A stretch of 64,000 nt of DNA, taken from contig JAJFUW010000146.1 of the NCBI GenBank assembly GCA_021372235.1, positions 322-64,321 on the forward strand. Reading direction: 5' to 3'. This stretch comes from Spirochaetia bacterium. Its GTDB lineage: Bacteria; Oederibacteriota; PGYV01; Palsa-1178. Of the stretch, positions 1,545 through 15,635 are shown piece by piece; position 1 is the first letter of the stretch; the number at the start of each line of letters is the position of its first letter. The position numbers and the translations under genes were made by a program. The notes under the pieces were generated by a model that was not told the origin of the DNA, did no database searches, and was given only the letters and a program-made list of their open reading frames with translations.

Positions 1545-2204
1545 CTAATTATTATAATAACCGGCAGAATTCATGTGCTTTACGACGGCAATATCTTTTA
1601 AAAAAACCGTTAGAATCGGTCTGTCGTTCATTACCAGCTTTGAGAGCCGAACGGCGGTCGATATCTTTGTGCCTTCGGGAGAATCAATAAAGGCAAATTC
1701 CAGCGAATCCGCATTTGCGGTGATTGTTATGGAAGTGTATTTGGTGTTGTTGCTGACAGCCGTAGAATCTGTCATGTCGGTACCCGGTTTCACCTGCGGG
1801 AAGGAGGCTACAATATAATTCCTGTCCTGGTAGATTTCGACAGGGGCGCCCTTAACGCCCACGGTCTCGATATCGTTCGACATGCCGCAACCGCATTTGA
1901 CCCTGTTGGACGACACAAAGATCGTTTCGCCCGCCAGACAGGAGAGGTAACTGTTGACAGGCGACGAAGTGTTGAGCCTTGAGATGGAAATCGTGGACCC
2001 CTGAGAAACCTGCACAATTTTTTTGATCATCAGCATTGTCATCCTGGCTTCGCTGTCAAGGGCCATCCTGGCGGTACCGTAATTCCACATATAGAGGCCG
2101 TTGTTTAAAAGGTTGTACAGCCCCACTGTCACGATGCCCATGAGGGTAGCCGTTAACATCAGTTCAATGAGGGTAAAGCCTTTTTTACGGCCGGATAGTT
2201 TCAT
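1545..2204 (-). CDS. prepilin-type N-terminal cleavage/methylation domain protein (pseudopilin/minor pilin)
   Basis: N-terminus MKLSGRKKGFTLIELMLTATLMGIVTV is a class III signal (G/FTLIE motif plus hydrophobic helix). 219 aa. Confidence 0.75.
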   Translation of the reverse strand: MKLSGRKKGFTLIELMLTATLMGIVTVGLYNLLNNGLYMWNYGTARMALDSEARMTMLMIKKIVQVSQGSTISISRLNTSSPVNSYLSCLAGETIFVSSNRVKCGCGMSNDIETVGVKGAPVEIYQDRNYIVASFPQVKPGTDMTDSTAVSNNTKYTSITITANADSLEFAFIDSPEGTKISTAVRLSKLVMNDRPILTVFLKDIAVVKHMNSAGYYNN

Positions 2205-2214
2205 TGTATGCCCC

Positions 2215-4839
2215 TTAATATGTTGTCCAGGATGATGAAGGGTCCCCGGTAAAATTATTCCCTGAAGTGTTTGGCGATATACCGGAGAGGACCTTGTAAT
2301 ATTTTTTAATAGTCCTCACAGGTTTCTGTACCGTACCTGTAATAGAGACCGAAGAGTAGTAGGCGTAAATATTATAAGTCGCGCCGACGGGCGCTTTGAT
2401 GCTGTATGAGGAATTCTGCCCGGATATGGAGCCGTAGTATGGCTGTGTCACGCGAAGCCTCTGAGTATGGCCCTGCATGTTTTGGTCAGCATTGGTCCTG
2501 GTGTATTTATCCGCAACAAGTGTTACGGACGAGGGATAAGCCAGAATCAAAAGCCCGCCGGCCGAATCCGCCTCTGTAAGGTTTATGGTCCCGGAAATTG
2601 TGCCGTATTTGGCCCTGATTTTGAAATCTTTACCGAATGTGGTGATGCCCTGTACTACGGATACGTTTGACCAGTACTGGCCTATCGGGTAGGTGATGAC
2701 GTACTCATCCTCGTCAACGGAAGGCTGGACCTTGTAACCGCTGCCTACAGGGATGTCGGCTATCTCGTAAATACCCGATGCGTTTGACAGCCCCGAACCC
2801 AAGACGGTTCCGGCGTTATTTTTGAGCTCCACGGTAATCCCCGAAACAGGGTCTCCTGTCACGTCGTCTGTTATCATGCCCGAGACCTTGCCTACGGGGT
2901 ACATCAGTATATCCGGTGCGTACTGCACACCGTTCTGGATGGAGGACAATGAGATGGGCTCGGATATCCTGTATCCCGATAGAGAGGCTGTCAATATGTA
3001 TGAACCCACCGTTGCAGGCATTATGGTGTAATTGCCTCCGCCGACGGTTGTCGGGCTCACATCAAGCGGGTCCGACAGGTATACTTCGGCGCCTATGAGG
3101 CCTAATCCGGTAAGCGCGTCCTTGACCCTGCCGTTTATAGTAGGCACATCTGAGGTTACGGTCAGGAAGATGTCCTGGTACGTTACGGTGCCTGCCGATA
3201 CCGGGACTCCGGTCAGGCGTGCATAATAGGATATGGGCGGGGAGTCGCTGGTCCTCCTGGTTGCCTCGAGCACGGTCTCACCGGTGGACGGGTCGATGTT
3301 GTCAACCCTGTAATAGCATGCGGTCGTCAGGTATGGCATGGACAGGCCGTCCAGGGATTTTATCGTGGCATTGTCCGCGCATGGCGACGGATAGGGTGTC
3401 GGCGTAACAGCAGGGGTGAATGTCGATGTGGGTACGGGTGTTGCGACCGCGTATTGCACCTCGAGGTACGCGTAATCCATGCCAATCCAGGCTATGAAGT
3501 TCGGGCTGGTATTGGCGCTTCTGAAGGCAACACCAAGGCTGTTGACCTTTGCCCAGGTCCAGGAGTCATAAAGCGGGGTCAGCGGGACTGAAAATTCCAG
3601 GTAGTCTGCCATGTTCGGTATGTTTGTACTGTTGTAAACAGTTGAAACGGTGCCAGTCCAGCCGCTTGGCACGGCGGTATCTGCCCAGACAGACCCGCCG
3701 TTGTTAGTCACATGCAGCCGCACGGTCGCGGAACCGTAGTAACAGTTAGCCCTGTATTTCAGGGTAACACTGCAGATATATGTGTTGGCCTCGGTATAGT
3801 CGGCGAATTGCGAATATAGCAGCCTGTTGTTGCGGTTAACCAGGAACCCAAGATCGGTATCAGAGTCATTGTTGTCCTGTACGGATATACGCGTAGGGTA
3901 GTTCCAGTTGGAGGTTTTACCAGACATGGAACCGGTGGCCCCCAGTATCTTTGTAATGCCACAGAAGGGCACGGGTGTCGGCGACGGCGTGACAACCGGC
4001 GTGGGGGTCGCTATGACGTCCCAAAAGACATTACCGGAAACCGAGCCGCAGTCAACGGCGGGGCATGTGATGTTTATGTTCGGGATTACAGTGGGGATGT
4101 CGGGGACTGTCAGGGGGTTGGATGTGTATTCAGTATCCTGGAGCCCTGCACCCTTTGCGACCAGGCTGTATGAGCCGGGCGCAACGTTGGATATGGAGTA
4201 ATTGCCCGCGTCATCCGCTATCCTCCCGGTATACTGCGGGTAGCCGATGAAATGTACCGAGGCGTTGGAACCCAGGCCCGGGTCCGTGACGGTCCCGTCG
4301 TTCAGAAGTTTGCGGACGCGGCCACTGACCGTTGAGCCCGATAGTGGCAGCTGCTTGTTCGAAACCAGCGTCGACATCCTGCTGGATTTCTCAAAACCGC
4401 CAGACATGTATGTCACCACAACAGTTATCATCTTCAGGTCGTGCTTGTTATCAGGCGGGAGCTCTGACTGTTTTGACGGGGTTATGTTGCCGTCGTTTTG
4501 TTCATACGCGTACTGGACATACCTGTAGACCTTGAATGGTTGGTTTCCTATCATTACGGACTCATAATAGTCGGGGTTCGATTCGAGTTTGGAAAGCGGG
4601 TCAGGCAGCAGGTTGTCGTCGGTAACGGCCAGCCCCTCAAAACTGTTCTGCCGCATCCTGTCGAGGTTTTCCGATACAAGGTTCATGGAGTATGTTTTCA
4701 TCTGGGAAGCTGTTATATCCCTGTAAACCCTCGTGATCAGGTTTACTGCGGCGACTATCATTATTGCGGTAATTGTGGAGGAAATGAGCAATTCTATTAA
4801 TGTGACACCTCTGGATCCAGAGATTTTTTTCATCATCAT
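2215..4839 (-). CDS. giant (874 aa) prepilin-type N-terminal domain protein with repeated beta-sandwich (CarboxypepD_reg/Cna-B-like) domains and PT-rich linkers
   Basis: N-terminus MMMKKISGSRGVTLIELLISSTITAIMIVAAV (GVTLIEL pilin motif). Body has several ~80-aa units with the G.V.D...G.pl.gA.V...P.....Yt....G.Y pattern typical of CarboxypepD_reg-like folds, plus TPTPVVTPSPTPVP and TPVPTSTFTPAVTPTPYPSP linkers. 10-nt gap to the downstream pilin gene. Confidence 0.7.
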   Translation of the reverse strand: MMMKKISGSRGVTLIELLISSTITAIMIVAAVNLITRVYRDITASQMKTYSMNLVSENLDRMRQNSFEGLAVTDDNLLPDPLSKLESNPDYYESVMIGNQPFKVYRYVQYAYEQNDGNITPSKQSELPPDNKHDLKMITVVVTYMSGGFEKSSRMSTLVSNKQLPLSGSTVSGRVRKLLNDGTVTDPGLGSNASVHFIGYPQYTGRIADDAGNYSISNVAPGSYSLVAKGAGLQDTEYTSNPLTVPDIPTVIPNINITCPAVDCGSVSGNVFWDVIATPTPVVTPSPTPVPFCGITKILGATGSMSGKTSNWNYPTRISVQDNNDSDTDLGFLVNRNNRLLYSQFADYTEANTYICSVTLKYRANCYYGSATVRLHVTNNGGSVWADTAVPSGWTGTVSTVYNSTNIPNMADYLEFSVPLTPLYDSWTWAKVNSLGVAFRSANTSPNFIAWIGMDYAYLEVQYAVATPVPTSTFTPAVTPTPYPSPCADNATIKSLDGLSMPYLTTACYYRVDNIDPSTGETVLEATRRTSDSPPISYYARLTGVPVSAGTVTYQDIFLTVTSDVPTINGRVKDALTGLGLIGAEVYLSDPLDVSPTTVGGGNYTIMPATVGSYILTASLSGYRISEPISLSSIQNGVQYAPDILMYPVGKVSGMITDDVTGDPVSGITVELKNNAGTVLGSGLSNASGIYEIADIPVGSGYKVQPSVDEDEYVITYPIGQYWSNVSVVQGITTFGKDFKIRAKYGTISGTINLTEADSAGGLLILAYPSSVTLVADKYTRTNADQNMQGHTQRLRVTQPYYGSISGQNSSYSIKAPVGATYNIYAYYSSVSITGTVQKPVRTIKKYYKVLSGISPNTSGNNFTGDPSSSWTTY

Positions 4840-4891: not shown

Positions 4892-5650
4892 TTACAACTT
4901 TTTTGTAAAGTTTGATTTTATAAGATATACAATTATTGATACAAAAAATATGACGGCACAGGTGATCTGCACCGGGGTCGGGAAAGAGTATCTGTCCTGA
5001 TACCGCATCAATTCCAGGAAAAACCTTGCAGCGGAGTAAAAAAACGCCAGCAGGACCATAAGTTCGCCGCTGAATTTTTGGTTTTTTTTCCTTATGAGAA
5101 GTATAATCAATATAAATAACCAGACGGTTGACTCGAATAACTGGACAGGCAGCAATGGCATGCCCGCGAATATTGTATATGGGTATGAACCATAGGGGTA
5201 GTTTACGCAAAATTCCCATCCGTTGGATGGCGGGATGCCAAAACAGCAGCCGCGCAACTGACAGCCCATCTTGGCGAACATACACCCTGCGGCAATTGAC
5301 GGCGCGAAATAGTCTGAAGCAATCCACGGATCGGTCTTTAGCAGACGGGCAATTGGGAAGGCAAATAGCGTAGCGGTTATTAGGCCCGGTAAAAGAGAGA
5401 CATCTCCCCAAAAAGAGAGGAGGCATCCGGCCTTGCCGGAGAGCAGGCAGACAACCATCTCCCAGCCGCGTGCCCCGCAGTAAAACGGGATAATAATAAC
5501 AGCCGCAAAGAGGAGTAGTTTTATCCGTTCCTGCCTGTCAATCGGTCTGGTGGTGTAAATCAGGAGGGAAAAACCGCATATTATACCGGCAACGGCAAGT
5601 ATATTGTACGACGGGACCTGCAGTGTGGCAAAATAGAAATATGGTATCAT
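4892..5650 (-). CDS. Lgt-family (prolipoprotein diacylglyceryl transferase-like) membrane protein, divergent, Cys-rich signature
   Basis: By-eye alignment to E. coli Lgt. SDYFAPSIAAG matches SDFIAPLIPFG; LLPVQLFESTVWLFILIIL matches HPSQLYELLLEGVVLFIIL; FFYSAARFFLELMRYQD matches IGYGAFRIIVEFFRQPD (Y...R...E conserved). Canonical G-R-L-G-N-F-I-N-G-E signature replaced by AKMGCQLRGCCFG. Confidence 0.65.
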   Translation of the reverse strand: MIPYFYFATLQVPSYNILAVAGIICGFSLLIYTTRPIDRQERIKLLLFAAVIIIPFYCGARGWEMVVCLLSGKAGCLLSFWGDVSLLPGLITATLFAFPIARLLKTDPWIASDYFAPSIAAGCMFAKMGCQLRGCCFGIPPSNGWEFCVNYPYGSYPYTIFAGMPLLPVQLFESTVWLFILIILLIRKKNQKFSGELMVLLAFFYSAARFFLELMRYQDRYSFPTPVQITCAVIFFVSIIVYLIKSNFTKKL

Positions 5651-5841: not shown

Positions 5842-6571
5842 CTATACAGGCTTGCGTTTTACCCATACAAAAACAGCCAAAAGTATGGCCAATAAGCACC
5901 ACAACCGGCCAATGGAGAGTATTTGAACGCTGTCGTTGTGGCGGAAAAACTCGATTGTGAAGCGGAAAGTGCCGTAAATGAAGAAAACTGCGGCTATCAT
6001 CCTGCCAAAGACAGGCTTGTTTCTATATAATAATATAAGCAGGATGAACGTGACGAGCCATGCCGTGGATTCGTACAATTGCGCAGGGTACAGGGGCAGG
6101 TCCGGGTATATCTGCGAAGCGCCGCTGTTAAAGGGGAAGGTAACGGCAAAAGGCGTATCAACAGGGCACGGCGTTCCGAAACAACAGCCGATAAAAAAAC
6201 AACCGAGTTTGACGAAAAATCCGCCTATCGCGATAGAGGGAGCGTACAGGTCGGCGGTTTCCCAGACATCTATATTTAAAAATTTGGCTGCGGGGAATGC
6301 GCAGAGTACGGCTGTCGCGAGCCCCACACCACAGCGAATCGCCGGACGGCGTGGCCGCAATGTAATGGGAAATAATGCCGCCGAGGCGCGCGCCGATGAT
6401 GAACGGGATAAAGATAGCTGCGGATAACAAAAAAATATTTTTTCTATTGTGCGACCCTATGGAGCGTGTCAGGAAAAACAGCATGATAAACCCGGAGGCA
6501 GCGCCGAGCAGGTCAAAGAGATAAGCTGTCTTGAAAACAAACCTGTTGAATTCAAAAAGTATGGGATACAT
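5842..6571 (-). pseudogene. second Lgt-family paralog, apparent +1/-1 frameshift near 6320-6345 (or sequencing error)
   Basis: ORF 6571..6158 encodes the N-terminal TM part (..PFIIGARLGGIISHYIAA) then runs into nonsense. ORF 6360..5842 in another frame encodes the conserved continuation (AFPAAKFLNIDVWETADLYAPSIAIGGFFVKLGCFFIGCCFG...QLYEST...FIYGTFRFTIEFFRHND). The frame switch falls at the cccc run 6322-6325. Confidence 0.55.
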
Positions 6572-6654
6572 CCCGGCCGCCTTTCGTAAATTATTTTCTG
6601 ACGGACCATTATAGCATAAAGAAAAGTAATTTTTGGTTTGCGGGGTAATTTTAG

Positions 6655-6696
6655 TTACGAAAAATAATTGAAATCTGTCAAAAAATCTACTATAAT
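6655..6696 (+). promoter_or_regulatory. sigma70-like promoter (TTGAAA-17-TATAAT), copy 1 of a duplicated ~41-nt promoter block
   Basis: ttacgaaaaataattgaaatctgtcaaaaaatctactataat; -35 at 6668-6673, -10 at 6691-6696, 17-nt spacer. Near-identical copy at 12431-12472. Confidence 0.5.
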
Positions 6697-6730
6697 AGCC
6701 ATATAGTAATTAAATTTCAAGGACGGGAAA

Positions 6731-7168
6731 ATGAAGAAAATAAAAGCGGTCGCATTGTCATTATTGTTTGTTTTTATTTTTTTGCCATTCGTTTCAGCCG
6801 AGGTCAATACGGTAAGCGTAATCAGCCTGACCCCTCCAAACCCAAATCCCGGCGACTCTGTGGCTGTTGAGTTTAGTTACTGTGTTGGTGCAAATGAAGA
6901 GAGCAGGTTCATGCTCGCTGTTTCGTCATATCCGACTTTCCAGGCCGGAGGCACGACCGGACAAGATTTCAAAGTAAGCGAAGGCGGATTTGATATAGGA
7001 GGTACAGGCGGAGGGACGGCAAGTGTCAGCGGTGGTTATGACATGAACGACCAGCAGGGCGCGGCCCATTGCCAGACCCTGACATGGAACATCCATATAC
7101 CGAACACCATATCCGAAGGCGGCACCTATTATGTTGTGATCGGAGGCAAGACGGGTATAAAATTTTAA
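6731..7168 (+). CDS. small secreted protein; truncated paralog (N-terminal domain only) of the 12507..14786 protein
   Basis: Signal peptide MKKIKAVALSLLFVFIFLPFVSA. Residues 24-145 align with the N-terminus of the 759-aa protein, including the conserved Cys pair (FSYCVGANEES / AAHCQTLTWNIHIP). Stops exactly where AT-rich DNA begins. Confidence 0.7.
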   Translation: MKKIKAVALSLLFVFIFLPFVSAEVNTVSVISLTPPNPNPGDSVAVEFSYCVGANEESRFMLAVSSYPTFQAGGTTGQDFKVSEGGFDIGGTGGGTASVSGGYDMNDQQGAAHCQTLTWNIHIPNTISEGGTYYVVIGGKTGIKF

Positions 7169-7233
7169 TAAATTTAAATATTGATGTTGGGCGAAAATAT
7201 TTTGCAAAAAAAATTCTCGGCCGGGGGTATTCT

Positions 7234-10200
7234 TTGATTAAAAAAAATCTTTTTATTTTAAATTTTATTTTTTTTACTTGTGTGACTATATATGGTGCTG
7301 CAGAAGTAAGGAATATTACTCTTTCCACGCAATGTATTAATCCCGGTCAAAGTATAACAGTTTCATTTGAAGTTAAATGTAATGCATATTTGAGAGTATA
7401 TGGTGATATATTATTTTCATCAAACTCGGTTGCAGAATATAGTGATGATTGTGTGTTTGGAGAGAACGGTTATTATGAAACCCCGGTTATTACTGGCCAC
7501 AACGGAGGATTACTTTTTGAAAATAACTATTCAACTTCAAATTGGAGTACAATCACAAAAACAATCCAAGTTCCTGATTTTTATACAGACGGAAAGTATT
7601 TAATTATAAATGTTGCAGAAAATTATCAACAACTGTTCAATTGGGGAAGCCATATTGAAGGAAGCAGTAGCCTATATATAAATATCTGCGAAAATTACAC
7701 AAATACATTAACGCCAACAATCGTTTTTCCTAATAATTCATTCACTGTAACTCCTACTTGTTCTTATACTATGACACAAACATTGTCACCGACGTCCTCG
7801 AATATTATTGTACCGACAATTACATGTACTCCAACAATAACAATTGCATTACCAGAAGTATATAAAGTGAGAATCGACTATAAACCTGGAAGTGATGAAA
7901 CAAACATAATCAAACCCTATTTTAGATTATACAACGAGAATACAATACCATTAGATCTTTCGAAGGTTAAAATAAAGTATTGGTACTTAATTGAAGATGA
8001 TTCACAAAATGAGAATAGAGAAATTTATTGGGTTGGAAAAAATAGCGGCGCAATAGATGTAACAAATAGCACTTTTGCTGAAATTAGTAAGACCAATATG
8101 GAAGATCAAAATCGTTGCTACGAAATAACATTCAGCAGCAGCGCGGGGCTATTAGATCAAGGGCAGTTTGTTGAGGTTCAAAGTGGAATATTTAAAGTGA
8201 ATTATAGCGATTATGATCAAGATAATGACTGGAGCTATAACAGCAGAAATGCAACATCTTTCGAATCTAATGGTAAAATAACTGTGAATGTCGACGGGAA
8301 AAATATATATGGAATGGTACCTTTTGATAAAAATCAACCAGTAATTATTAACATGAACTGTGGTGGTGCTGGATTTAATGACCACTTGGGAATTTTATAT
8401 TTGCAGGGACGTAAATATGAAAAAGGAGGATGGGGCTCAGAGTATTTTCCTGATATTTTAAGTAAACCTCAATTACCAATTGCAGGTACAGTCGACCAGT
8501 ATATTTATCAAAATGCGGTATTAGGAAGTCCAACGAAACCATTGCATTATATCTATGATAACATTCCAGTTGGATTGTATGAAGTAAAATTCAAATTCGC
8601 TGAAATTGATGAAAATGTAACAAGTGCTGGACAAAATGTATTTTCAATAGATATCGAAGACAAAAGTATTTTTCAATATATCGATGTGTTTGCTTCCGCC
8701 GGATTTGCCTATGCATATGAATTAGTAACCAAAGTTGCCGTATATGACGGTCAATTAAATATTGATTTTAATGGATCGTTTGCCAATGGGATTACAGTAC
8801 AGCAGATTTATGAGCAGGCAACACCGCAAACCTCAAGTAGTGCTACTTGTGATGCATGGGTTGACATTGACGGAGTCGGGCAGAATAATATTAATGTATC
8901 AAACACTGGAGAAAATTCGAAAAACCCATGGTTTGAAATTGACAGCAATAATCATACACACATAATGTGGATGGAGTATGCTGCTATATTAAGATATGAG
9001 GAGTGGGATGGAACATCCTGGAGAGGAGTTGGCGGTATAGGAAGTGGTTATTCAGCAGTAAACACACTTGGGAAAAGTATGCATTCATATTCATTCACAA
9101 TGGACGGGTCAGGTTATCCAGTTGTTACATTTGCAGGTAAATCTAGCTATAATGGAATATTTGACATTTATTGTACTAGATGGAATGGGTCAACGTGGGC
9201 CGATGTTACAGGCTCAGGAACAAGTAAATTGTGTGTTTGGTGCGGTAAACCCATAAACTATAATCCTTATGTTAAAATGGACTCTTTAGGAAATCCGCAC
9301 ATCGCATTTCATAGCATACCGTCTTATGGTGGCAGAATGGGTTATATAAGATGGAACGGAGCAGACTGGACGGATATTGATGGAGCAGGGACGGAAAAAG
9401 TGGTTATAGATAGACCCGGATTAGAGAATTCATATAATAGACAATTTGTTTTTGATTCAGCAAACCATCCGCATTTAGTTTGGATGCAGGAATATGATGG
9501 AACAGGCGAAATAAATTATATGAATTGGAATGGAACTAACTGGGTTGATGTGACGGGTTCCTCATCATTAAGTAAAATTAACATATCAAATAATAGCACT
9601 TACTCTACTTGCCCACAAATTGTTCTTGATTCAAGCGAATATCCAAATATTATATGGGTGGATGGTTCTACAAGTTCCAACAGTTTTAAGATAAATTTTC
9701 TAAAATGGAATGGAACTGCCTGGGTGGATATAGATGGTGTTGGAAAAGAATCTCAAGTTTTAAGTTTTACAAATTGTTCATCACAATCAGTTTCTATGGT
9801 TCTCGATAATGAAGGTAATCCGCATGTTGCTTGGGTTGACAAAAGTACAAATGAGCCATATTACGTATATTGGAATGGAACGGCATGGGTTGATGTTAGG
9901 GGTTCTACATCATTATCTAGTATTAAGGTTTATCAAGATACTGAAAAATATTCTAGTGCAAGTAGTGCCCAATTATGTCTTGATAATGATGGCATACCGC
10001 ATATCGCATGGACTAATTATAGCAAAAATAATGGATTTAGTGGCGAAATATACTATCTTAAATGGGGTGGAGCATGCCCGCCAACACCTACGCCTACACC
10101 TATAATTTGTGTATTAACTGAAACATCATATGGAGATAATGGGGAATTACAGTTAGAAAATTTAGCAGCATCGATGACAATGGACAATACGGGGAAAATA

Positions 10201-12405
10201 GTCACATCAGGTAATTACAATAATAATTATTTGGAGATTGCAAGATATAATCAAAATGGCACAAAAGATTATACATTTGACGGAGATGGACAAGTTTTAA
10301 CATATATACCCGGACTCGCTGGCAATCATGCGGTAATAGCTGATGAAAACAATAAAATACTAGCAACAACAAGAAACAATATAGATGGGCGTGTAATGGT
10401 TAGATGTCTGCCAAACGGACAGATTGATACTACGTTTGGAACAAACGGATATGCAATGCCGCCTTCAGGCGTGGACTTTTATGCGTGGGACATGAAAATA
10501 GATTCAGAAGGAAGAATAGTGGCGGTAGGTGTAAGTTCGGGAAACAATTCTCCAATTATGACAAAAATGACAGTATGCAGATATAATCCGAATGGGACAT
10601 TGGATTTAAGTTTTAACGGAACAGGATATACAACGAATAATATAAGTACAACAAATCCGACATTAAATACAATAGGGTTTGGCATAACATTTGATCAAAA
10701 TAATAAGATTGTTATTGTCGGAGAGGGAAATAATCCAACAACCGGTATGGTGATATGGAGATTTAATGATAACGGCACATTGGATACGAGTTTTAATGCT
10801 ACCGGAACCAATCCGGGAACAATAGTAGAGACTAAATATGCTGGTTCTATAAGTGGAAGAGAAGCATATATCGACGGGTTGGGGAGAATATTAGTAACTG
10901 GAAGTTGTTATCTGGCAAGCTGCGAGATGGCGGCAATATACAGATATAATACAGATGGATCCCCGGATATGAGTTTTGGAACTGGAGGATATACAGCAAT
11001 AAAAGGAAATGGCAATAAAGGCATAACAACAGACAAATGCGGAAGAATACTAGTTTTGAATACTGAAGGAGGACTTATAAGTAGATTCAATGACGATGGG
11101 ACTCCGGATACGACATTCAATAATGGGCAATATAGTATATCTGTTGCAAATGTAATATATGGAGAAGATTTAATATTGGAAGAAGATGGCGATATATTTG
11201 TTTTAACTATGGAACGAAATATGACTGACATGTCAAGTAACAGCAAGATAAGGAAATATAAGAACAATAGTGTTTGTGTTTGCGCACAAGTTACATTTAC
11301 GCCAACGCCGACAATGAATTGTACACCATCTTGGCAGTATATTGGAACGCCGGGAATATCAATTGGTATTGCAAATAATGGAGGAATAGGTATTTCATAT
11401 GGTACTATATATATAGGATTTAATGACTATGGGAATGACGGTAAAACATCAGCAATGTTTTTTAATGGCTCAATATGGAATAACATTGGCGGAATTGGAT
11501 TTTCAAATACATCAACATCAAATCCTTCATTTTTTGTCTTTAATGGTATGCCATACATGGCTTATGCAGATAATACTAATGGTTTTAAGGCAAAGGTTAT
11601 GAAATATAAGTATGGAATCTGGATACCTGTCGGATCGACTAGTATATCAGATGGTGAAGCACAAAACCTGTGTCTTTATGTATACGATGATGGTACTGTA
11701 GATGGATTACCATATCTTGCATTTAGGGATATGTATAATCTTGGTAAGGCAACAGTAAAAAGATTTTATGGTTCAAGTTGGACTGATGTGGGTGGATATC
11801 CAGCCATTACTAATGCAACTGCATATTATATGTCTTTTTATGTATATAATAATGGTACGACTTTTGGAATGCCATATTTAGCTTTCGAAGACTCGGCATC
11901 AGGCAGCAAAGCAAGTGTAATGAAATTTAATGGTACTTGGACATACGTTGGAGGATCCCCGGGAGCATCAATTGTTGCAGGGACATATACATCAATATAC
12001 ATATATAATAATGGCACATTTGAGGGATTACCATATCTAGCTTTCAGTAATATGGACAATTCCTATAAGGCTAATGTGATTAAATTTGAGACTGGGATTT
12101 GGCAAGTTGTGGGAGTACAAAATTTTACAACTACTGGTTCATCGGAAAATAAAATAGAAGTGTATGATGATGGATTAACTATTGGAGGAATACCTTATCT
12201 TGCATATATTGATTTTGATACTACATTTAAAGCAAATGTAGTGAAACTGGTTGGTTCAAGTTGGCAAAGTGTTGGTAGTGCAAATTTCACACCAAGTAAT
12301 ATCGGCCAAATATTTTTTGATATATGCAAAGGAATACCTTATGTATCTTTTGTTGACTGGAATGCTGATGGAAAATTAAGTGTGATGAAATATGATTGCC
12401 AATAG
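7234..12405 (+). CDS. giant secreted multidomain carbohydrate-binding/repeat protein (CBM3-like, malectin-like, W-rich propeller, delta-60 repeats, second propeller)
   Basis: The track ORF 7069..12405 begins with TTG and overlaps the upstream gene. A TTG at 7234 preceded by GGGGG gives the signal peptide LIKKNLFILNFIFFTCVTIYGAA. Domains by eye: CBM3 (YKVRIDYKPGSDETNIIKPYFRLYNENTIPLDLSKVKIKYWY...DWSYN); malectin (VIINMNCGGAGF...YEVKFKFAEIDEN...); repeats ..NPHIAW...WNGTxWVDVxGS; PTPTPTP linkers; delta-60 (RYNxNGTxDxxFxGxG); final ~50-aa repeats (G.PYLAF.D....KAxVxK(F/Y)..g.W..VG). Gene GC is visibly much lower than the flanks. Confidence 0.8.
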   Translation: MIKKNLFILNFIFFTCVTIYGAAEVRNITLSTQCINPGQSITVSFEVKCNAYLRVYGDILFSSNSVAEYSDDCVFGENGYYETPVITGHNGGLLFENNYSTSNWSTITKTIQVPDFYTDGKYLIINVAENYQQLFNWGSHIEGSSSLYINICENYTNTLTPTIVFPNNSFTVTPTCSYTMTQTLSPTSSNIIVPTITCTPTITIALPEVYKVRIDYKPGSDETNIIKPYFRLYNENTIPLDLSKVKIKYWYLIEDDSQNENREIYWVGKNSGAIDVTNSTFAEISKTNMEDQNRCYEITFSSSAGLLDQGQFVEVQSGIFKVNYSDYDQDNDWSYNSRNATSFESNGKITVNVDGKNIYGMVPFDKNQPVIINMNCGGAGFNDHLGILYLQGRKYEKGGWGSEYFPDILSKPQLPIAGTVDQYIYQNAVLGSPTKPLHYIYDNIPVGLYEVKFKFAEIDENVTSAGQNVFSIDIEDKSIFQYIDVFASAGFAYAYELVTKVAVYDGQLNIDFNGSFANGITVQQIYEQATPQTSSSATCDAWVDIDGVGQNNINVSNTGENSKNPWFEIDSNNHTHIMWMEYAAILRYEEWDGTSWRGVGGIGSGYSAVNTLGKSMHSYSFTMDGSGYPVVTFAGKSSYNGIFDIYCTRWNGSTWADVTGSGTSKLCVWCGKPINYNPYVKMDSLGNPHIAFHSIPSYGGRMGYIRWNGADWTDIDGAGTEKVVIDRPGLENSYNRQFVFDSANHPHLVWMQEYDGTGEINYMNWNGTNWVDVTGSSSLSKINISNNSTYSTCPQIVLDSSEYPNIIWVDGSTSSNSFKINFLKWNGTAWVDIDGVGKESQVLSFTNCSSQSVSMVLDNEGNPHVAWVDKSTNEPYYVYWNGTAWVDVRGSTSLSSIKVYQDTEKYSSASSAQLCLDNDGIPHIAWTNYSKNNGFSGEIYYLKWGGACPPTPTPTPIICVLTETSYGDNGELQLENLAASMTMDNTGKIVTSGNYNNNYLEIARYNQNGTKDYTFDGDGQVLTYIPGLAGNHAVIADENNKILATTRNNIDGRVMVRCLPNGQIDTTFGTNGYAMPPSGVDFYAWDMKIDSEGRIVAVGVSSGNNSPIMTKMTVCRYNPNGTLDLSFNGTGYTTNNISTTNPTLNTIGFGITFDQNNKIVIVGEGNNPTTGMVIWRFNDNGTLDTSFNATGTNPGTIVETKYAGSISGREAYIDGLGRILVTGSCYLASCEMAAIYRYNTDGSPDMSFGTGGYTAIKGNGNKGITTDKCGRILVLNTEGGLISRFNDDGTPDTTFNNGQYSISVANVIYGEDLILEEDGDIFVLTMERNMTDMSSNSKIRKYKNNSVCVCAQVTFTPTPTMNCTPSWQYIGTPGISIGIANNGGIGISYGTIYIGFNDYGNDGKTSAMFFNGSIWNNIGGIGFSNTSTSNPSFFVFNGMPYMAYADNTNGFKAKVMKYKYGIWIPVGSTSISDGEAQNLCLYVYDDGTVDGLPYLAFRDMYNLGKATVKRFYGSSWTDVGGYPAITNATAYYMSFYVYNNGTTFGMPYLAFEDSASGSKASVMKFNGTWTYVGGSPGASIVAGTYTSIYIYNNGTFEGLPYLAFSNMDNSYKANVIKFETGIWQVVGVQNFTTTGSSENKIEVYDDGLTIGGIPYLAYIDFDTTFKANVVKLVGSSWQSVGSANFTPSNIGQIFFDICKGIPYVSFVDWNADGKLSVMKYDCQ

Positions 12406-12430
12406 TTGCAGATTATCTTCTACAAAAAAA

Positions 12431-12472
12431 TTACGAAAATAATTGAAATCTGCCAAAAAATCTACTATAATA
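12431..12472 (+). promoter_or_regulatory. sigma70-like promoter, copy 2 of the duplicated block
   Basis: ttacgaaaataattgaaatctgccaaaaaatctactataat; -35 at 12443-12448, -10 at 12466-12471. About 40/41 identical to 6655-6696. RBS aagga(c/g)(a/g)ggaaaATG is also conserved. Confidence 0.5.
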
Positions 12473-12506
12473 TTTATATATTAGTTATAATCCTAAGGAC
12501 AGGAAA

Positions 12507-14786
12507 ATGAAAAAAATCCTAAGAAGCTTATTAATGGTGTTGCTTGTAACTTTTACGCTTACACCTGTTTTTGCCACTGTTACATCAGTCAGCATTACAA
12601 GCGTGACACCGGCCAGCCCTGCTCCGGGTGATCTGGTGCAGGTTATTTTCAATTATTGCGCAGGCCCTTATGAAGATACTAAGATGGTGCTGGCGGTCTC
12701 AACAAACTCAAGTTTCATGGCGTGCAATACGGCCGGTCAGGAGTTTAAGGTAAGCGAGGGCGGAATGGATATTGGAGGGACCGGGCCCGGAGCGGCAACC
12801 GCCAATGGCGGTTACAATATGAGCGACAACCAGACTGTTGCTCACTGTCAGGATATTACATGGAGCATACATATTCCCACAACCGCAACGCCAGGCCTGA
12901 CATATTATATCCTTGTCGGAGGCAGGTCCTCTTATATAGGCTGCAATGATGCGCAGGCGTACGCGAACTATTCTTTTGTGGCACCGTTGCCGTCGCCGGC
13001 TGCAACAATATCCAAAACAGCCGAATCCTCAGTAGTCCAGCCGGGAGATCTTGTGCTTTTCAGTATCGATTACACTTTTGTCAATGGCACCAATTTTACC
13101 ATAACTGACAACATCCCTGCAGGCTGCGTGATTGAATCCGTAAGCAACGGCGGTATTGTCTCGGGTTCCACTGTTTCCTGGGCAACGGCATCCGTGCCGG
13201 GGCCGCAAGCAAGCGGGAGCGTGTGGTTCACCGCCAGGGTTAATACGGGCACCACACCCGGCACAGTGATCTCAAACACTGCCCACTGGGCCATGGACGA
13301 GATACCGGCAGGCGGTGACAGCAGCGCGGTGACGGTCACGGTAGGGCAGCCGTTTTCGATAACCAAAAGCCAGAACGTAACAACAGCTGCGATAGGAGAA
13401 ACGGTAACATATTCTTTTGATGTACGGGCCGGCGGATCGGCATTTCATTCACTGGATAATTTCGACGCCGACCTGAACGGTTTTACGGTTGCCGGTCCCG
13501 GGCCGGGCTTTATCTGGCAGTCTGACGCCGGCGGCGGACATATCTATTCATATGAGCAGACAGGCGGACAGTACCCGCATCTCTTGAGGACTGACCTGGG
13601 GAATTTTTGCTTCGGTGACATACAGGGAGACCTCTACATAATAAACAAGGCCAGCGGAGACAATGATGCATTGATAACATTCCGGGACAATGGTTTATAC
13701 GGGGCTGCGGGAGCCGCATACGGTGTTGGCATCTCTCCTGACGGTTCAAATTCCGTCGGCCAACAATTGTGGATACAAAAATATGTATCAGGCACGACCG
13801 GCGGCACGTTTGCGGGAGCGTTCATATCGATTTCTACGGATGCTTGGTATACCGTTAAGATCCATGTATCAGATACAGCCAGCGGTGTCAGGATACAGGC
13901 AAAGGCATGGCTGAGAGGCACTGCTGAACCGGCTGCTTATATGGCGGACTGGACCGATACGGCCGCAATCATCGCTCCATGCGGGTATGTTGGCGTTCAG
14001 GGTAACGCCAATAACGCGAACTACTACGACAATCTGAAAATAGTAAAGACCACAATGTCATATCCTGCCCTGTACGACACCCTCCCGACGGAACTGACTT
14101 TCGTGGGCGGGACCGGCGCTGACGCGACACACTCCGCAGCCACGCTGACGGGCAACACCGTGAAATGGTCCATATTTACATCGTTTGTTGACGCGGCTTA
14201 CCATCTGGACCTGTGGGCCGTTGTGAACGCCTGCGGCACTCTTTTGAACAGGGCAACGATAGACACCGAGGAATCCGCGCCTGTTGACTCAAACCAGGTA
14301 TCCATCAATGCTCTCTGCCCCGAGTCGCCGACGATAACCCCGACATTTACGATTACAGAGACATATACGGATACCGCAACACCGACAATAACGCTTACAT
14401 CAACCCTTACGCCGACCCTCACAGAGACGCTTACCCGCACCGTCACAATGACGTTAACCGCGACCCCGACGCCGACGGTGCCGCTCGAGCTGACACCGGT
14501 CACGAACTACCCCAATCCTTTCGGCACGTCCGACAAGCAGACAACCACGATTGTTTTCGAGCTCACAGCGGATGCGGACTGCACCATAACGGTATTTACC
14601 CTGTCAGGAGAGACCATATACAGGTCGGGGACATTTGCGGGGTTAAAGGGCAGGAACTCGTATCCATGGGACGGGAAAAATAACGGCAACAAATTCGCCG
14701 CATCAGGGGTCTATTTTTACAGGATAACCGCGGAAAATCCCTCCGGGAAAAAGTCGGCGATTTCAAGGCTTGCGGTTTTGAGGTAG
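12507..14786 (+). CDS. secreted 759-aa protein: conserved N-terminal domain, DUF11-like repeats, LamG-like region, Thr-rich linker, Por_Secre_tail-like C-terminal sorting domain
   Basis: Signal peptide present. N-domain paralogous to 6731..7168. DUF11-type segment (PGDLVLFSIDYTFVNGTNFTITDNIPAGCVIESVS...TVSW...NTAHWA). C-terminus TNYPNPFGTSDKQTTTIVFELTADADCTITVFTLSGETIYRSG...GVYFYRITAEN matches the T9SS-type CTD (YPNPF hallmark). Confidence 0.8.
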   Translation: MKKILRSLLMVLLVTFTLTPVFATVTSVSITSVTPASPAPGDLVQVIFNYCAGPYEDTKMVLAVSTNSSFMACNTAGQEFKVSEGGMDIGGTGPGAATANGGYNMSDNQTVAHCQDITWSIHIPTTATPGLTYYILVGGRSSYIGCNDAQAYANYSFVAPLPSPAATISKTAESSVVQPGDLVLFSIDYTFVNGTNFTITDNIPAGCVIESVSNGGIVSGSTVSWATASVPGPQASGSVWFTARVNTGTTPGTVISNTAHWAMDEIPAGGDSSAVTVTVGQPFSITKSQNVTTAAIGETVTYSFDVRAGGSAFHSLDNFDADLNGFTVAGPGPGFIWQSDAGGGHIYSYEQTGGQYPHLLRTDLGNFCFGDIQGDLYIINKASGDNDALITFRDNGLYGAAGAAYGVGISPDGSNSVGQQLWIQKYVSGTTGGTFAGAFISISTDAWYTVKIHVSDTASGVRIQAKAWLRGTAEPAAYMADWTDTAAIIAPCGYVGVQGNANNANYYDNLKIVKTTMSYPALYDTLPTELTFVGGTGADATHSAATLTGNTVKWSIFTSFVDAAYHLDLWAVVNACGTLLNRATIDTEESAPVDSNQVSINALCPESPTITPTFTITETYTDTATPTITLTSTLTPTLTETLTRTVTMTLTATPTPTVPLELTPVTNYPNPFGTSDKQTTTIVFELTADADCTITVFTLSGETIYRSGTFAGLKGRNSYPWDGKNNGNKFAASGVYFYRITAENPSGKKSAISRLAVLR

Positions 14787-14864
14787 CAGGCCATAGGCAT
14801 GTAAAACGTAGACAGGGGAATGACGTCCAATAATAAAGCAAAAAAATTACAAGAGGAGGTAAAG

Positions 14865-15551
14865 ATGAAAAGAGTGACCGTGGTTTTAATGTTTTTATTG
14901 ATGGCCGGAGCGGTGACCGCAGCGCAGAGAAATGCCCCGATGGACAATATGAACGGTTTTGACAACAAGATCAAGGAACTGGACCAGAGGCTCGCGAGCC
15001 TCGAGGCAAAAGTTGTTGTGACACCGGAAGCGCAGAAAGAACAGGGCTTCAGGTTCGGCAAGGTGGAAGAGCGCATAATGAGGCTCGAGGAGAGGATCAA
15101 TAAACTCGAGGCCAGACTGAACAAACTCGCCGACAGCGTCATAGCCGTAGAGGACAAGGTAGATGCCAGGAAGGGAAAGAGGCCGCCAACAGAGACTCCT
15201 ACATTTACCCCGGTACCGACAAACACGCCCGCAGCGTCCAAAACGACAATAAAAAAAGTGCGTATAACCGTGAAAGATACGACAACAAAAAGGCTGGGCA
15301 AGGCGGGAGAAAAAGGCAGGGTTGCGTTCGCGTATAAGGTCAATGTGGAAAACGACGAAGCGCGCGAGGCAAAGTCGTTTAAGGTAAAGATAATGTTAAA
15401 GGACTCCGACGGATTTACCCTGGATACCTATATAGCAGGCCCGTTCACGCTGACCCGCTGGGAGGAAAAAACGCTCGAGGGCGAAGGCACTATAAGGGCT
15501 GACAGGGCGGACAAAGTATCATCATCGGAATCGGAAATAATTTGGGAATAA
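14865..15551 (+). CDS. secreted coiled-coil protein, hypothetical
   Basis: Start taken at MKRVTVVLMFLLMAGAVTAA (RBS aggagg upstream). Heptad-like LEERINKLEARLNKL. No recognisable catalytic domain. Confidence 0.55.
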   Translation: MKRVTVVLMFLLMAGAVTAAQRNAPMDNMNGFDNKIKELDQRLASLEAKVVVTPEAQKEQGFRFGKVEERIMRLEERINKLEARLNKLADSVIAVEDKVDARKGKRPPTETPTFTPVPTNTPAASKTTIKKVRITVKDTTTKRLGKAGEKGRVAFAYKVNVENDEAREAKSFKVKIMLKDSDGFTLDTYIAGPFTLTRWEEKTLEGEGTIRADRADKVSSSESEIIWE

Positions 15552-15597
15552 GTAACAGCGAGACAGGAGACAAAAGCAGACAGTAAAATAATACAAA

Positions 15598-15635
15598 ACA
15601 GGGCGGGAGAAATCCCGTCCTGTTGCTTTATATAA
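15598..15635 (+). terminator. rho-independent terminator-like hairpin
   Basis: acagggcgggag-aaa-tcccgtcctgt followed by tgctttatat. Confidence 0.45.

Follow-up and report, generated by a model that had tools for sequence, protein, structure and literature searches.

The locus described here lies in a 64-kb stretch of contig JAJFUW010000146.1 (hereafter the window), which is registered at NCBI under the label 'Spirochaetia bacterium'. It consists of a long AT-rich gene placed between two members of a family of surface proteins: a truncated one upstream (copy 1) and a full-length one downstream (copy 2), each behind the same type of promoter. Two genes of prolipoprotein diacylglyceryl transferase (LGT-a and LGT-b) are found further upstream on the opposite strand. 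The features of the locus are reported in table 1. We present evidence that the AT-rich gene was acquired horizontally and has probably taken the place of the body of copy 1.

The AT-rich gene and the truncated copy

The stretch 7157–12430 has a GC content of about 35 per cent, versus about 50 per cent for the rest of the window. In a sliding profile with frames of 500 nt, all of the values between 7251 and 12500 are in the range 0.30–0.41, and those outside are approximately 0.44–0.58; this trough is the sole long GC dip within the 64 kb. The stretch is occupied by one open reading frame (ORF), whose true start is the TTG at 7234 and whose product is identical to the NCBI entry MCE5300554.1. 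The overall GC content of the gene is 0.353. Its GC content at third codon positions (GC3) is 0.248, as compared with 0.507–0.725 for the 41 other genes of the window (mean 0.631, s.d. 0.048; z = −8.0). At first positions (GC1), the value is 0.40 versus about 0.50 in native genes, and at second positions (GC2), it is within the native range (0.42). The deficit in GC3 is thus much larger than the differences in GC1 and GC2, which indicates that the anomaly is synonymous and not due to amino-acid content. GC3 is low in all six of the domain segments of the gene (0.21–0.27), so the gene constitutes a single compositional unit. The strand-symmetric tetranucleotide distance between 7501–12500 and the remaining contig is 0.58; for 5-kb segments clear of the region, it is 0.11–0.23. 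An initial annotation, made from the nucleotide sequence alone, had described a sharply AT-rich stretch extending from position 7156 to copy 2 and filled by a single gene of about 1720 codons. Both statements are confirmed by these statistics, and the GC profile is clearly not uniform.

The left junction of the AT-rich stretch is located at about 7153–7157. The similarity of copy 1 to its family ends after codon 141 (approximately 7153–7156), with a stop three codons on, and the switch to AT-rich sequence coincides with the point where this similarity is lost. The coincidence, already reported in the initial annotation, is supported by both the sequence and the family alignment. At the right junction (12406–12430), there is no terminator and no remnant of the body of copy 1. 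We rejected the possibility that copy 1 and the large ORF are parts of one frameshifted gene: the extension of the ORF over 7069–7233 translates to nonsense and overlaps copy 1 in another frame, and the product that starts at TTG 7234 has a proper signal peptide and agrees at its N-terminus with the nearest homologue (P0025, see below).

No transposase and no integrase are present among the ORFs of the window, and there is no tRNA gene in the 64 kb. Apart from the family promoter block, no terminal inverted or flanking direct repeat was detected at the ends of the AT-rich segment, where only AT-rich matches at chance level were seen. The comparison with a phage collection gave no match, and that with a plasmid collection gave matches at the level of domains only. 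The earlier claim that no transposase or integrase had been left behind is therefore correct.

Copy 2 has the full architecture of its family, composed of an N-terminal domain (N-domain), DUF11/CLIPPER repeats, a central domain, a TP-rich linker and a type A C-terminal sorting domain of the type IX secretion system (T9SS). Its profile matches are Pfam DUF11 and FlgD_ig, and TIGR04183 (31.7 bits versus a cut-off of 23). It is 43–50 per cent identical to its homologues, which are named 'T9SS type A sorting domain-containing protein' at NCBI and 'uncharacterized repeat protein, TIGR01451 family' at JGI. Copy 1 corresponds to residues 1–141 only; over this part, the two copies are 52 per cent identical (E 1e-47), in agreement with the N-terminal paralogy proposed initially.

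The family homologues (21 of 21) have 747–982 aa and begin with the N-domain. When 1.84 billion cluster representatives were scanned exhaustively by phmmer with copy 1 (145 aa) as the query, 42 matches were obtained, with the domain N-terminal in all of them; the complete proteins have 650–1400 aa, and the short ones end within the domain in the manner of contig-end fragments. Among these representatives, there is no complete stand-alone form of about 145 aa other than copy 1, and a word-indexed homologue search with the same query recovered only copy 1 itself. As all the complete homologues have at least 650 aa, copy 1 is considered to be a stub. AlphaFold2 (AF2), run on the family alignment, models its N-domain as a beta-sandwich of seven strands (pLDDT 73). 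The last strand occupies residues 134–141, and the cut is thus situated at the domain boundary. Foldseek searches with this domain found generic Ig-like sandwiches only (TM below 0.45, none with an E-value of 0.001 or less). All of the family-invariant residues are kept in copy 1, which is compatible with a recent truncation or with a retained function. The missing body, of about 1.9 kb, has left no remnant. Its complete loss, together with the presence of only 25 nt before the next promoter, argues for a replacement and not for a simple insertion.

Table 1. Coordinates and characteristics of the features of the locus (positions in the window).
Feature	Position	Strand	Description
LGT-a, prolipoprotein diacylglyceryl transferase, intact	4892..5650	−	Pfam LGT E 2e-24; 33–44% identical to the single LGT of relatives
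LGT-b, diverged second copy	5842..6571	−	two overlapping ORFs jointly spanning a full LGT; +1 frameshift in GGGG run 6322–6325
Family promoter of copy 1	6655..6696	+	−35 TTGAAA 6668–6673, −10 TATAAT 6691–6696, 17-nt spacer
Copy 1, 145-aa stub (MCE5300553.1)	6731..7168	+	signal peptide and complete Ig-like beta-sandwich N-domain; cut after codon 141
AT-rich leader of the foreign segment	7157..7233	+	GGGGG ribosome-binding site 5 nt ahead of TTG
AT-rich (foreign) gene	7234..12405	+	1723 aa, MCE5300554.1; GC 0.353, GC3 0.248
Signal peptide and Ig-like N-terminal domain	7234..7764 (aa 1–177)	+	BLASTP 33–34% identity, E 2e-23, to P0025 and P0027
TP-rich linker	between N-domain and CBM3 of the AT-rich gene product	+	seen in the translation
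CBM_3 cellulose-binding module	7891..8085 (aa 220–284 matched)	+	PF00942, E 7e-7, 30–33 bits versus cut-off 22.4
Malectin	8341..8817 (aa 370–528)	+	PF11721, E 3e-15, 56.8–60.7 bits versus cut-off 23
First repeat array, BNR_4-like (sialidase-type propeller)	8902..10260 (about aa 557–1009)	+	PF15892, E 7e-10, 39.1 bits versus 27.3
Delta-60/DUF5122 beta-propeller array	10261..11328 (about aa 1010–1365)	+	TIGR02608, E 3e-51, 171 bits versus 76.5
C-terminal 7-bladed beta-propeller	11329..12402 (aa 1366–1723)	+	AF2 pLDDT 90.9, pTM 0.90
Right junction	12406..12430	+	25 nt, from the foreign stop codon to the promoter of copy 2
Family promoter of copy 2	12431..12471	+	−35 12443–12448, −10 12466–12471
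Copy 2, full-length family gene, 759 aa (MCE5300555.1)	12507..14786	+	T9SS type A cargo

The conserved promoter and the locus in relatives

The promoter blocks 6655–6696 and 12431–12471 differ by one substitution and one indel in an A-run, and both have the sigma-70 form TTGAAA-17-TATAAT. A search with a 36-mer and up to three mismatches found these two sites only, and none in 100 shuffles. The promoter TTGAAATCTGNCAAAAAATCTANTATAAT precedes copy 1, copy 2 and the orthologues in the loci L007 and L015–L018, and a degraded form is present in L009. Among 241 million metagenome records, the exact 29-mer has four matches, all four upstream of syntenic orthologues that are 43–49 per cent identical to copy 2. 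The sites of the 29-mer are L007 9860–9888, L015 10385–10413 (−), L016 3297–3325 (−), L017 2416–2444 (−) and L018 25–53. The 17-nt spacer (TCTGNCAAAAAATCTAN) is conserved as strongly as the hexamers, which suggests the presence of an operator or of some other constraint within it; TCTGNCAAAAAATCTA is a candidate target of a regulator.

As the 29-mer has been kept in front of orthologues that are less than 50 per cent identical, the near identity of the two promoter blocks reflects purifying selection and gives no clue to the age of the duplication. The N-domain of copy 1 is 54 per cent identical to that of copy 2, and 59–66 per cent identical to those of several orthologues from other genera. 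A recent tandem duplication, as an explanation of the identical promoters, is ruled out by these identities and by the occurrence of the promoter in distant orthologues. The initial annotation was right in reporting near-identical promoter blocks and in describing a duplicated locus with paralogous copies; the near identity of the promoters is due to constraint and is no mark of a recent duplication. Judged from their sequences, copy 1 and copy 2 are old paralogues, as are the members of the adjacent LGT pair. The closest N-domains to that of copy 1 (62–66 per cent identity) are those of contigs L001 (GC content 0.32) and L002 (0.30), which carry full-length family members 44–46 per cent identical to copy 2; the family spans genomes of approximately 30 to 50 per cent GC.

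The 5′ untranslated region (UTR) is of about 35 nt in both of the window copies (6697–6730 and 12472–12506). In relatives (L007, L015, L017 and L018), the distance from the −10 box to the start is about 80–100 nt and includes a GC-rich hairpin; the hairpin stretch, of about 50 nt, is missing from both window copies. Promoter and UTR together are 87–91 per cent identical between the two copies. This identity and the shared short UTR point to a common origin in the lineage, or to gene conversion.

The locus was sought in relatives by scanning one genome per GTDB species with a family alignment of six sequences, which gave five loci; loci from metagenomes were added, and the genes of the window were compared by tblastn. 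Two of the five loci carry the name of candidate division FCPU426, and three are from uncultured Spirochaetia metagenome-assembled genomes (MAGs) that share their gene order. Both synteny and protein identity place the present contig nearest to genomes under the FCPU426 name; its NCBI label looks like a placeholder, and we take the contig to come from an uncultured bacterium of that division. In all, there are nine syntenic loci, some of them from the same species (L003/L004/L010, L006, L007/L017, L008, L009, L015/L016 and L018). Their conserved order is as follows: two pseudopilin-like genes, one LGT gene (−), one full-length family gene (+), and genes for ThiI-like/NFACT-R, YacP, MarR, an outer-membrane barrel, TolC-like, HlyD and AcrB proteins. 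The AT-rich gene is absent from all nine, and so are a truncated copy and a second LGT gene. The comparison with relatives called for in the initial annotation thus shows the locus without the insert, and the three-gene arrangement is absent there. A second paralogue is found only in L003/L004, where it is located downstream and is far more distant (27 per cent identity).

Other differences concern the neighbouring genes. LGT-a and LGT-b are 36–42 per cent identical to each other, and LGT-b is either a pseudogene or the result of an assembly (homopolymer) error. In relatives, a gene for a membrane protein of about 270–320 aa lies between the LGT gene and the family gene (L009 8838–9812 (−), L008 8866–9783 (−) and L007 7307–8128 (−)). 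It is missing from the whole window, and the interval between LGT and family gene is therefore a variable spot in the lineage. Upstream, the window encodes pseudopilin-like proteins (1545–4839). Downstream of copy 2, at 14820–15551 (+), there is a gene for a coiled-coil protein of 243 aa, which has a host-like composition and no counterpart at the locus in the closest relatives; in L003, an unrelated coiled-coil gene (178 aa) occupies the equivalent position.

The predicted protein and its homologues

The domains of the 1723-aa protein were assigned with Pfam and TIGRFAM profiles; assignments were judged against the curated gathering cut-offs, which all of the reported scores exceed. The CBM_3 match is partial (profile positions 9–70 of 83), and the malectin match is near full-length (positions 1–157 of 163). 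We take malectin to correspond to CAZy family CBM57. Three arrays of repeats follow. The first is composed of at least six units of about 57–60 aa with the motif W(N/D)GxxW and is visible in the DNA as repeat family D1; its BNR_4 score was obtained by scanning aa 557–1009 alone, and the best stretch matches just the C-terminal part of the profile. The second, the delta-60 array, matches TIGR02608 in five stretches and also PF17164 (DUF5122; E 3e-26, 91.7 bits versus 27), with a DNA period of about 180 nt (repeat family D2). The third consists of blades of about 53 aa with the pattern PY(L/M/V)A(F/Y)...KAxVxKF.G..W..VG, and the protein ends with ...SVMKYDCQ. No Pfam family was recognized in the scan of these blades (aa 1366–1723). 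The structures nearest to their AF2 model in Foldseek are generic 7-bladed propellers and lectins (TM about 0.65). The same type of blade recurs in the proteins P0025, P0027 and P0030, and in an Acidovorax plasmid protein annotated as 'choice-of-anchor U domain-containing' (36 per cent identity over 282 aa).

No catalytic domain was recognized in profile scans of the 1723-aa protein. The T9SS C-terminal sorting domain (TIGR04183/PF18962) has no match in it either, and its last element is a propeller blade. Its N-domain was aligned with that of the flanking family by hhalign with a probability of 77 per cent (E 2e-5, 101 columns), and pairwise BLASTP with copy 2 gave E 0.006. The N-domain is thus a probable distant homologue of the flanking family domain, on evidence that is suggestive and inconclusive.

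The protein is predicted to be exported by Sec, with a path past the inner membrane that we presume. It is probably a non-catalytic, multivalent multi-lectin, a predicted binder of cellulose or of other plant or microbial glycans that may serve as an adhesin or in substrate capture. The initial annotation had described a secreted mosaic of a CBM3 module, malectin, two propeller-type arrays and a delta-60 array; profile searches and the AF2 model agree with it on every element, and its suggestion of a function in glycan binding or adhesion is upheld, as a prediction, by the domain content. One member of the FCPU426/Goldbacteria 16S cluster is a cellulose-bound organism whose cellulases have been validated by experiment (PMC7031533), and the predicted glycan binding fits a lineage tied to cellulose degradation.

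There is no close homologue of the protein. The best is P0025, with 28 per cent identity over 45 per cent of the length, and the three proteins of the locus, this one included, are singletons among 15 billion sequences. The genes of P0025 and P0026 each follow a gene for a small secreted protein of 132–137 aa (L011 996–1394 and L013 9499–9912), and these two small proteins look mutually related. The P0026 gene is directly upstream of a complete operon similar to those of the type II secretion system (L013 14953–24260). A conserved module made of a small N-domain gene and a giant CBM3 gene was considered and ruled out, the small genes upstream of P0025 and P0026 being unrelated to copy 1.

Origin of the arrangement

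On the basis of these data, we consider it likely that the body of the upstream one of two old paralogues was replaced by a horizontally acquired foreign gene, which is probably expressed from the captured promoter. Relatives carry one gene for a T9SS-sorted surface protein behind the conserved sigma-70 promoter, and the present lineage would have had two old tandem copies of it. The body of the upstream copy, from just past codon 141 to just ahead of the promoter of the downstream copy, would then have given way to a segment of about 5.27 kb that came from a genome with approximately 30–35 per cent GC. The route would have been illegitimate recombination, or recombination anchored by short homology, with no mobile element. 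The upstream copy would have been left with its promoter, ribosome-binding site, signal peptide and complete N-domain (145 aa). The incoming gene would have arrived intact, bringing a ribosome-binding site and a signal peptide of its own, and would be transcribed by read-through from the captured family promoter.

A scan of the plus strand found no terminator in 6916–10456, and thus none between the stub and the foreign gene; the 25 nt that separate the foreign gene from the promoter of copy 2 hold none either. Not until 15597–15624, 3′ of the coiled-coil gene 14820–15551, does this strand have a convincing terminator, which is also the strongest terminator-like hairpin of the region. The lack of a terminator after the stub suggests that the foreign gene is probably cotranscribed with it. 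The order of events, the mechanism of recombination and the expression by read-through are what we infer from the arrangement. As for the initial claim that copy 1 was truncated by the acquisition of a foreign gene, the truncation and the foreign origin are well founded; the acquisition would be the cause of the truncation, and would have been a replacement rather than an insertion.

Several points weigh against this interpretation. No donor or close homologue of the foreign gene is known, and its source is therefore deduced from composition alone. The foreign protein lacks the T9SS sorting domain used by the family that it displaced, which makes its surface display in the present host uncertain. 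The relatives have one LGT gene and one family gene, so that the starting state with tandem paralogues is deduced and not observed. The nearest relatives are distant (about 45–65 per cent protein identity), and they give no date for the duplication or for the acquisition. As to the contig, it belongs to a metagenome assembly with the locus-tag prefix LLG37, and no independent assembly of the junctions is on record.

With regard to the source, the P0025 gene has 48 per cent GC within a contig of 45 per cent GC, and is for this reason not the donor. The contigs L001 and L002 carry a family gene with GC3 of 0.17–0.23; the donor may thus plausibly have been a low-GC bacterium of this broad lineage.

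A composite import is the first alternative. The whole piece from LGT-b to the foreign gene (about 5842–12430) would have entered at once, from a genome of FCPU426 type already carrying the AT-rich replacement, and would have landed with native sequence on either side, LGT-a on the left and the promoter of copy 2 on the right, the right crossover falling within the conserved promoter block. Relatives have single genes for LGT and for the family protein, both of which are doubled here. The order LGT-a / LGT-b, promoter, stub, foreign gene / promoter, copy 2 fits one insertion, into the intergenic region between LGT and the family gene, and not the tandem duplication of a unit. The LGT pair (36–42 per cent identity) and the copy pair (54 per cent) are as divergent as orthologues of different genera, and the right junction adjoins the promoter block, which is 41/42 identical between the copies. 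The N-domain of copy 1 clusters with those of P0004 and P0009 in a neighbour-joining tree, and its GC3 (0.507, z = −2.6) is the lowest among the native-like genes. However, the tree is based on 118 columns only, and the composition of LGT-b (GC3 0.58) and of copy 1 (0.51) resembles that of the host and not that of the donor. Moreover, both window copies share the derived short 5′ UTR, with promoter and UTR 87–91 per cent identical, and an anchor of 42 nt is short for homologous recombination. We regard a composite import as unlikely.

The AT-rich stretch could also be an assembly artefact, derived from another, low-GC organism of the sample and misjoined at short shared sequences such as the promoter. 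The contig is from a MAG, the promoter of 29–42 nt is conserved between genera and might act as a false-join k-mer, low-GC genomes with the same family exist (L001 and L002), and the databases hold one assembly only of these proteins. Both flanks are, however, syntenic in relatives, so that an artefact would require two precise misjoins at a distance of 5.3 kb, and the left junction has no shared repeat. The inserted stretch corresponds exactly to one complete gene together with a ribosome-binding site of its own. Even with this stretch excised, copy 1 would remain truncated, for which a chimera offers no explanation. An artefact is thus very unlikely. The idea that the gene is native and owes its low GC content to its amino-acid composition (repeats rich in Asn, Tyr, Ile and Lys) or to its repetitiveness is barely credible: the protein is indeed rich in N, Y, I, S and T and has three repeat arrays, but the deficit is largest at third positions (GC3 0.25 versus 0.63), GC3 is just as low in the CBM3 and malectin parts, which are not repetitive, and the gene is missing from all of the syntenic relatives.

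Beyond the replacement of the body of copy 1, the conserved promoter, signal peptide and N-domain might constitute a recurrent platform for landing and expression, a site of cassette swapping for adhesins among genomes of FCPU426 type. Exchange across very different GC contents may then proceed by recombination anchored in the promoter or in the N-domain. This would be in line with the probable homology of the foreign N-domain, the many lengths and architectures of the proteins headed by the N-domain, the position of the right junction at a promoter and the existence of low-GC genomes with the family. A single event has been seen, and the arrangement is plain in nine of nine relatives, which count against a platform; we hold it to be quite unlikely.

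Comparison with known systems

The event is of a known kind, a clean and ordinary horizontal transfer, and not a new kind of system. As a recent acquisition in a little-studied candidate phylum, its value is mainly descriptive. It would show that no mobile element is needed for a gene of 5 kb to reach a core locus in an uncultured bacterium, where it can take the place of a paralogue and come under the control of a strong native promoter. Its product, a near-orphan multi-lectin protein with CBM3, malectin and three propellers (one of them confidently modelled as 7-bladed, without a Pfam family), is a candidate glycan-binding adhesin. The most unusual by-product is the promoter: 29–38 nt, with the spacer conserved, across species whose proteins are less than 50 per cent identical. 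It offers a handle on regulation in FCPU426.

In its architecture, the foreign protein resembles the surface proteins of cellulolytic bacteria that combine several carbohydrate-binding modules and lectin domains: it likewise has a signal peptide, TP-rich linkers, and CBM_3 together with malectin, and no catalytic domain was detected. In contrast to these CBM3 surface proteins, it has no cohesin, dockerin, SLH or T9SS domain, two thirds of it are three different propellers, and its binding is predicted only. The nearest single protein, P0025 (2476 aa; metagenome assemblies ERZ27247823 and ERZ27247803, loci L011 and L012), is collinear with it. The two share the N-domain (33 per cent identity), CBM3, the delta-60 array, the C-terminal propeller and the end ...SVMKYDCQ, and both are without a T9SS tail. 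P0025 differs in its low overall identity (28 per cent), in being 750 aa longer and in having no reported match to malectin or BNR_4; its gene is preceded by one of 132 aa that has no counterpart in the window. With the flanking family of FCPU426 T9SS cargo proteins, copy 1 shares the promoter, the signal peptide and the N-domain, and nothing past residue 141. Beyond the probable distant N-domain, the foreign protein shares nothing with this family, and it lacks the T9SS C-terminal domain.

The closest parallel to the event itself is provided by small genomic islets, which are acquired by horizontal gene transfer without mobility genes, through illegitimate or homology-facilitated illegitimate recombination. 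Hallmarks of mobility are not obligatory for such islets. Of the features by which they are recognized, the deviant composition and the absence from the locus of relatives are found here, and the mobility hallmarks and an identifiable donor are not. As in islets, a single compositionally foreign gene is present at a conserved core locus, is absent from relatives and is accompanied by no integrase, transposase, tRNA or repeats; one junction lies beside a short, highly conserved sequence, which is a possible anchor. Unlike in islets, no donor was found here, and homology at the anchor would be conjectural. The present locus also differs from islets in the form of the product: the body of a paralogue has been replaced exactly at a domain boundary, and a promoter, a signal peptide and a domain stub have been left in front of the new gene.

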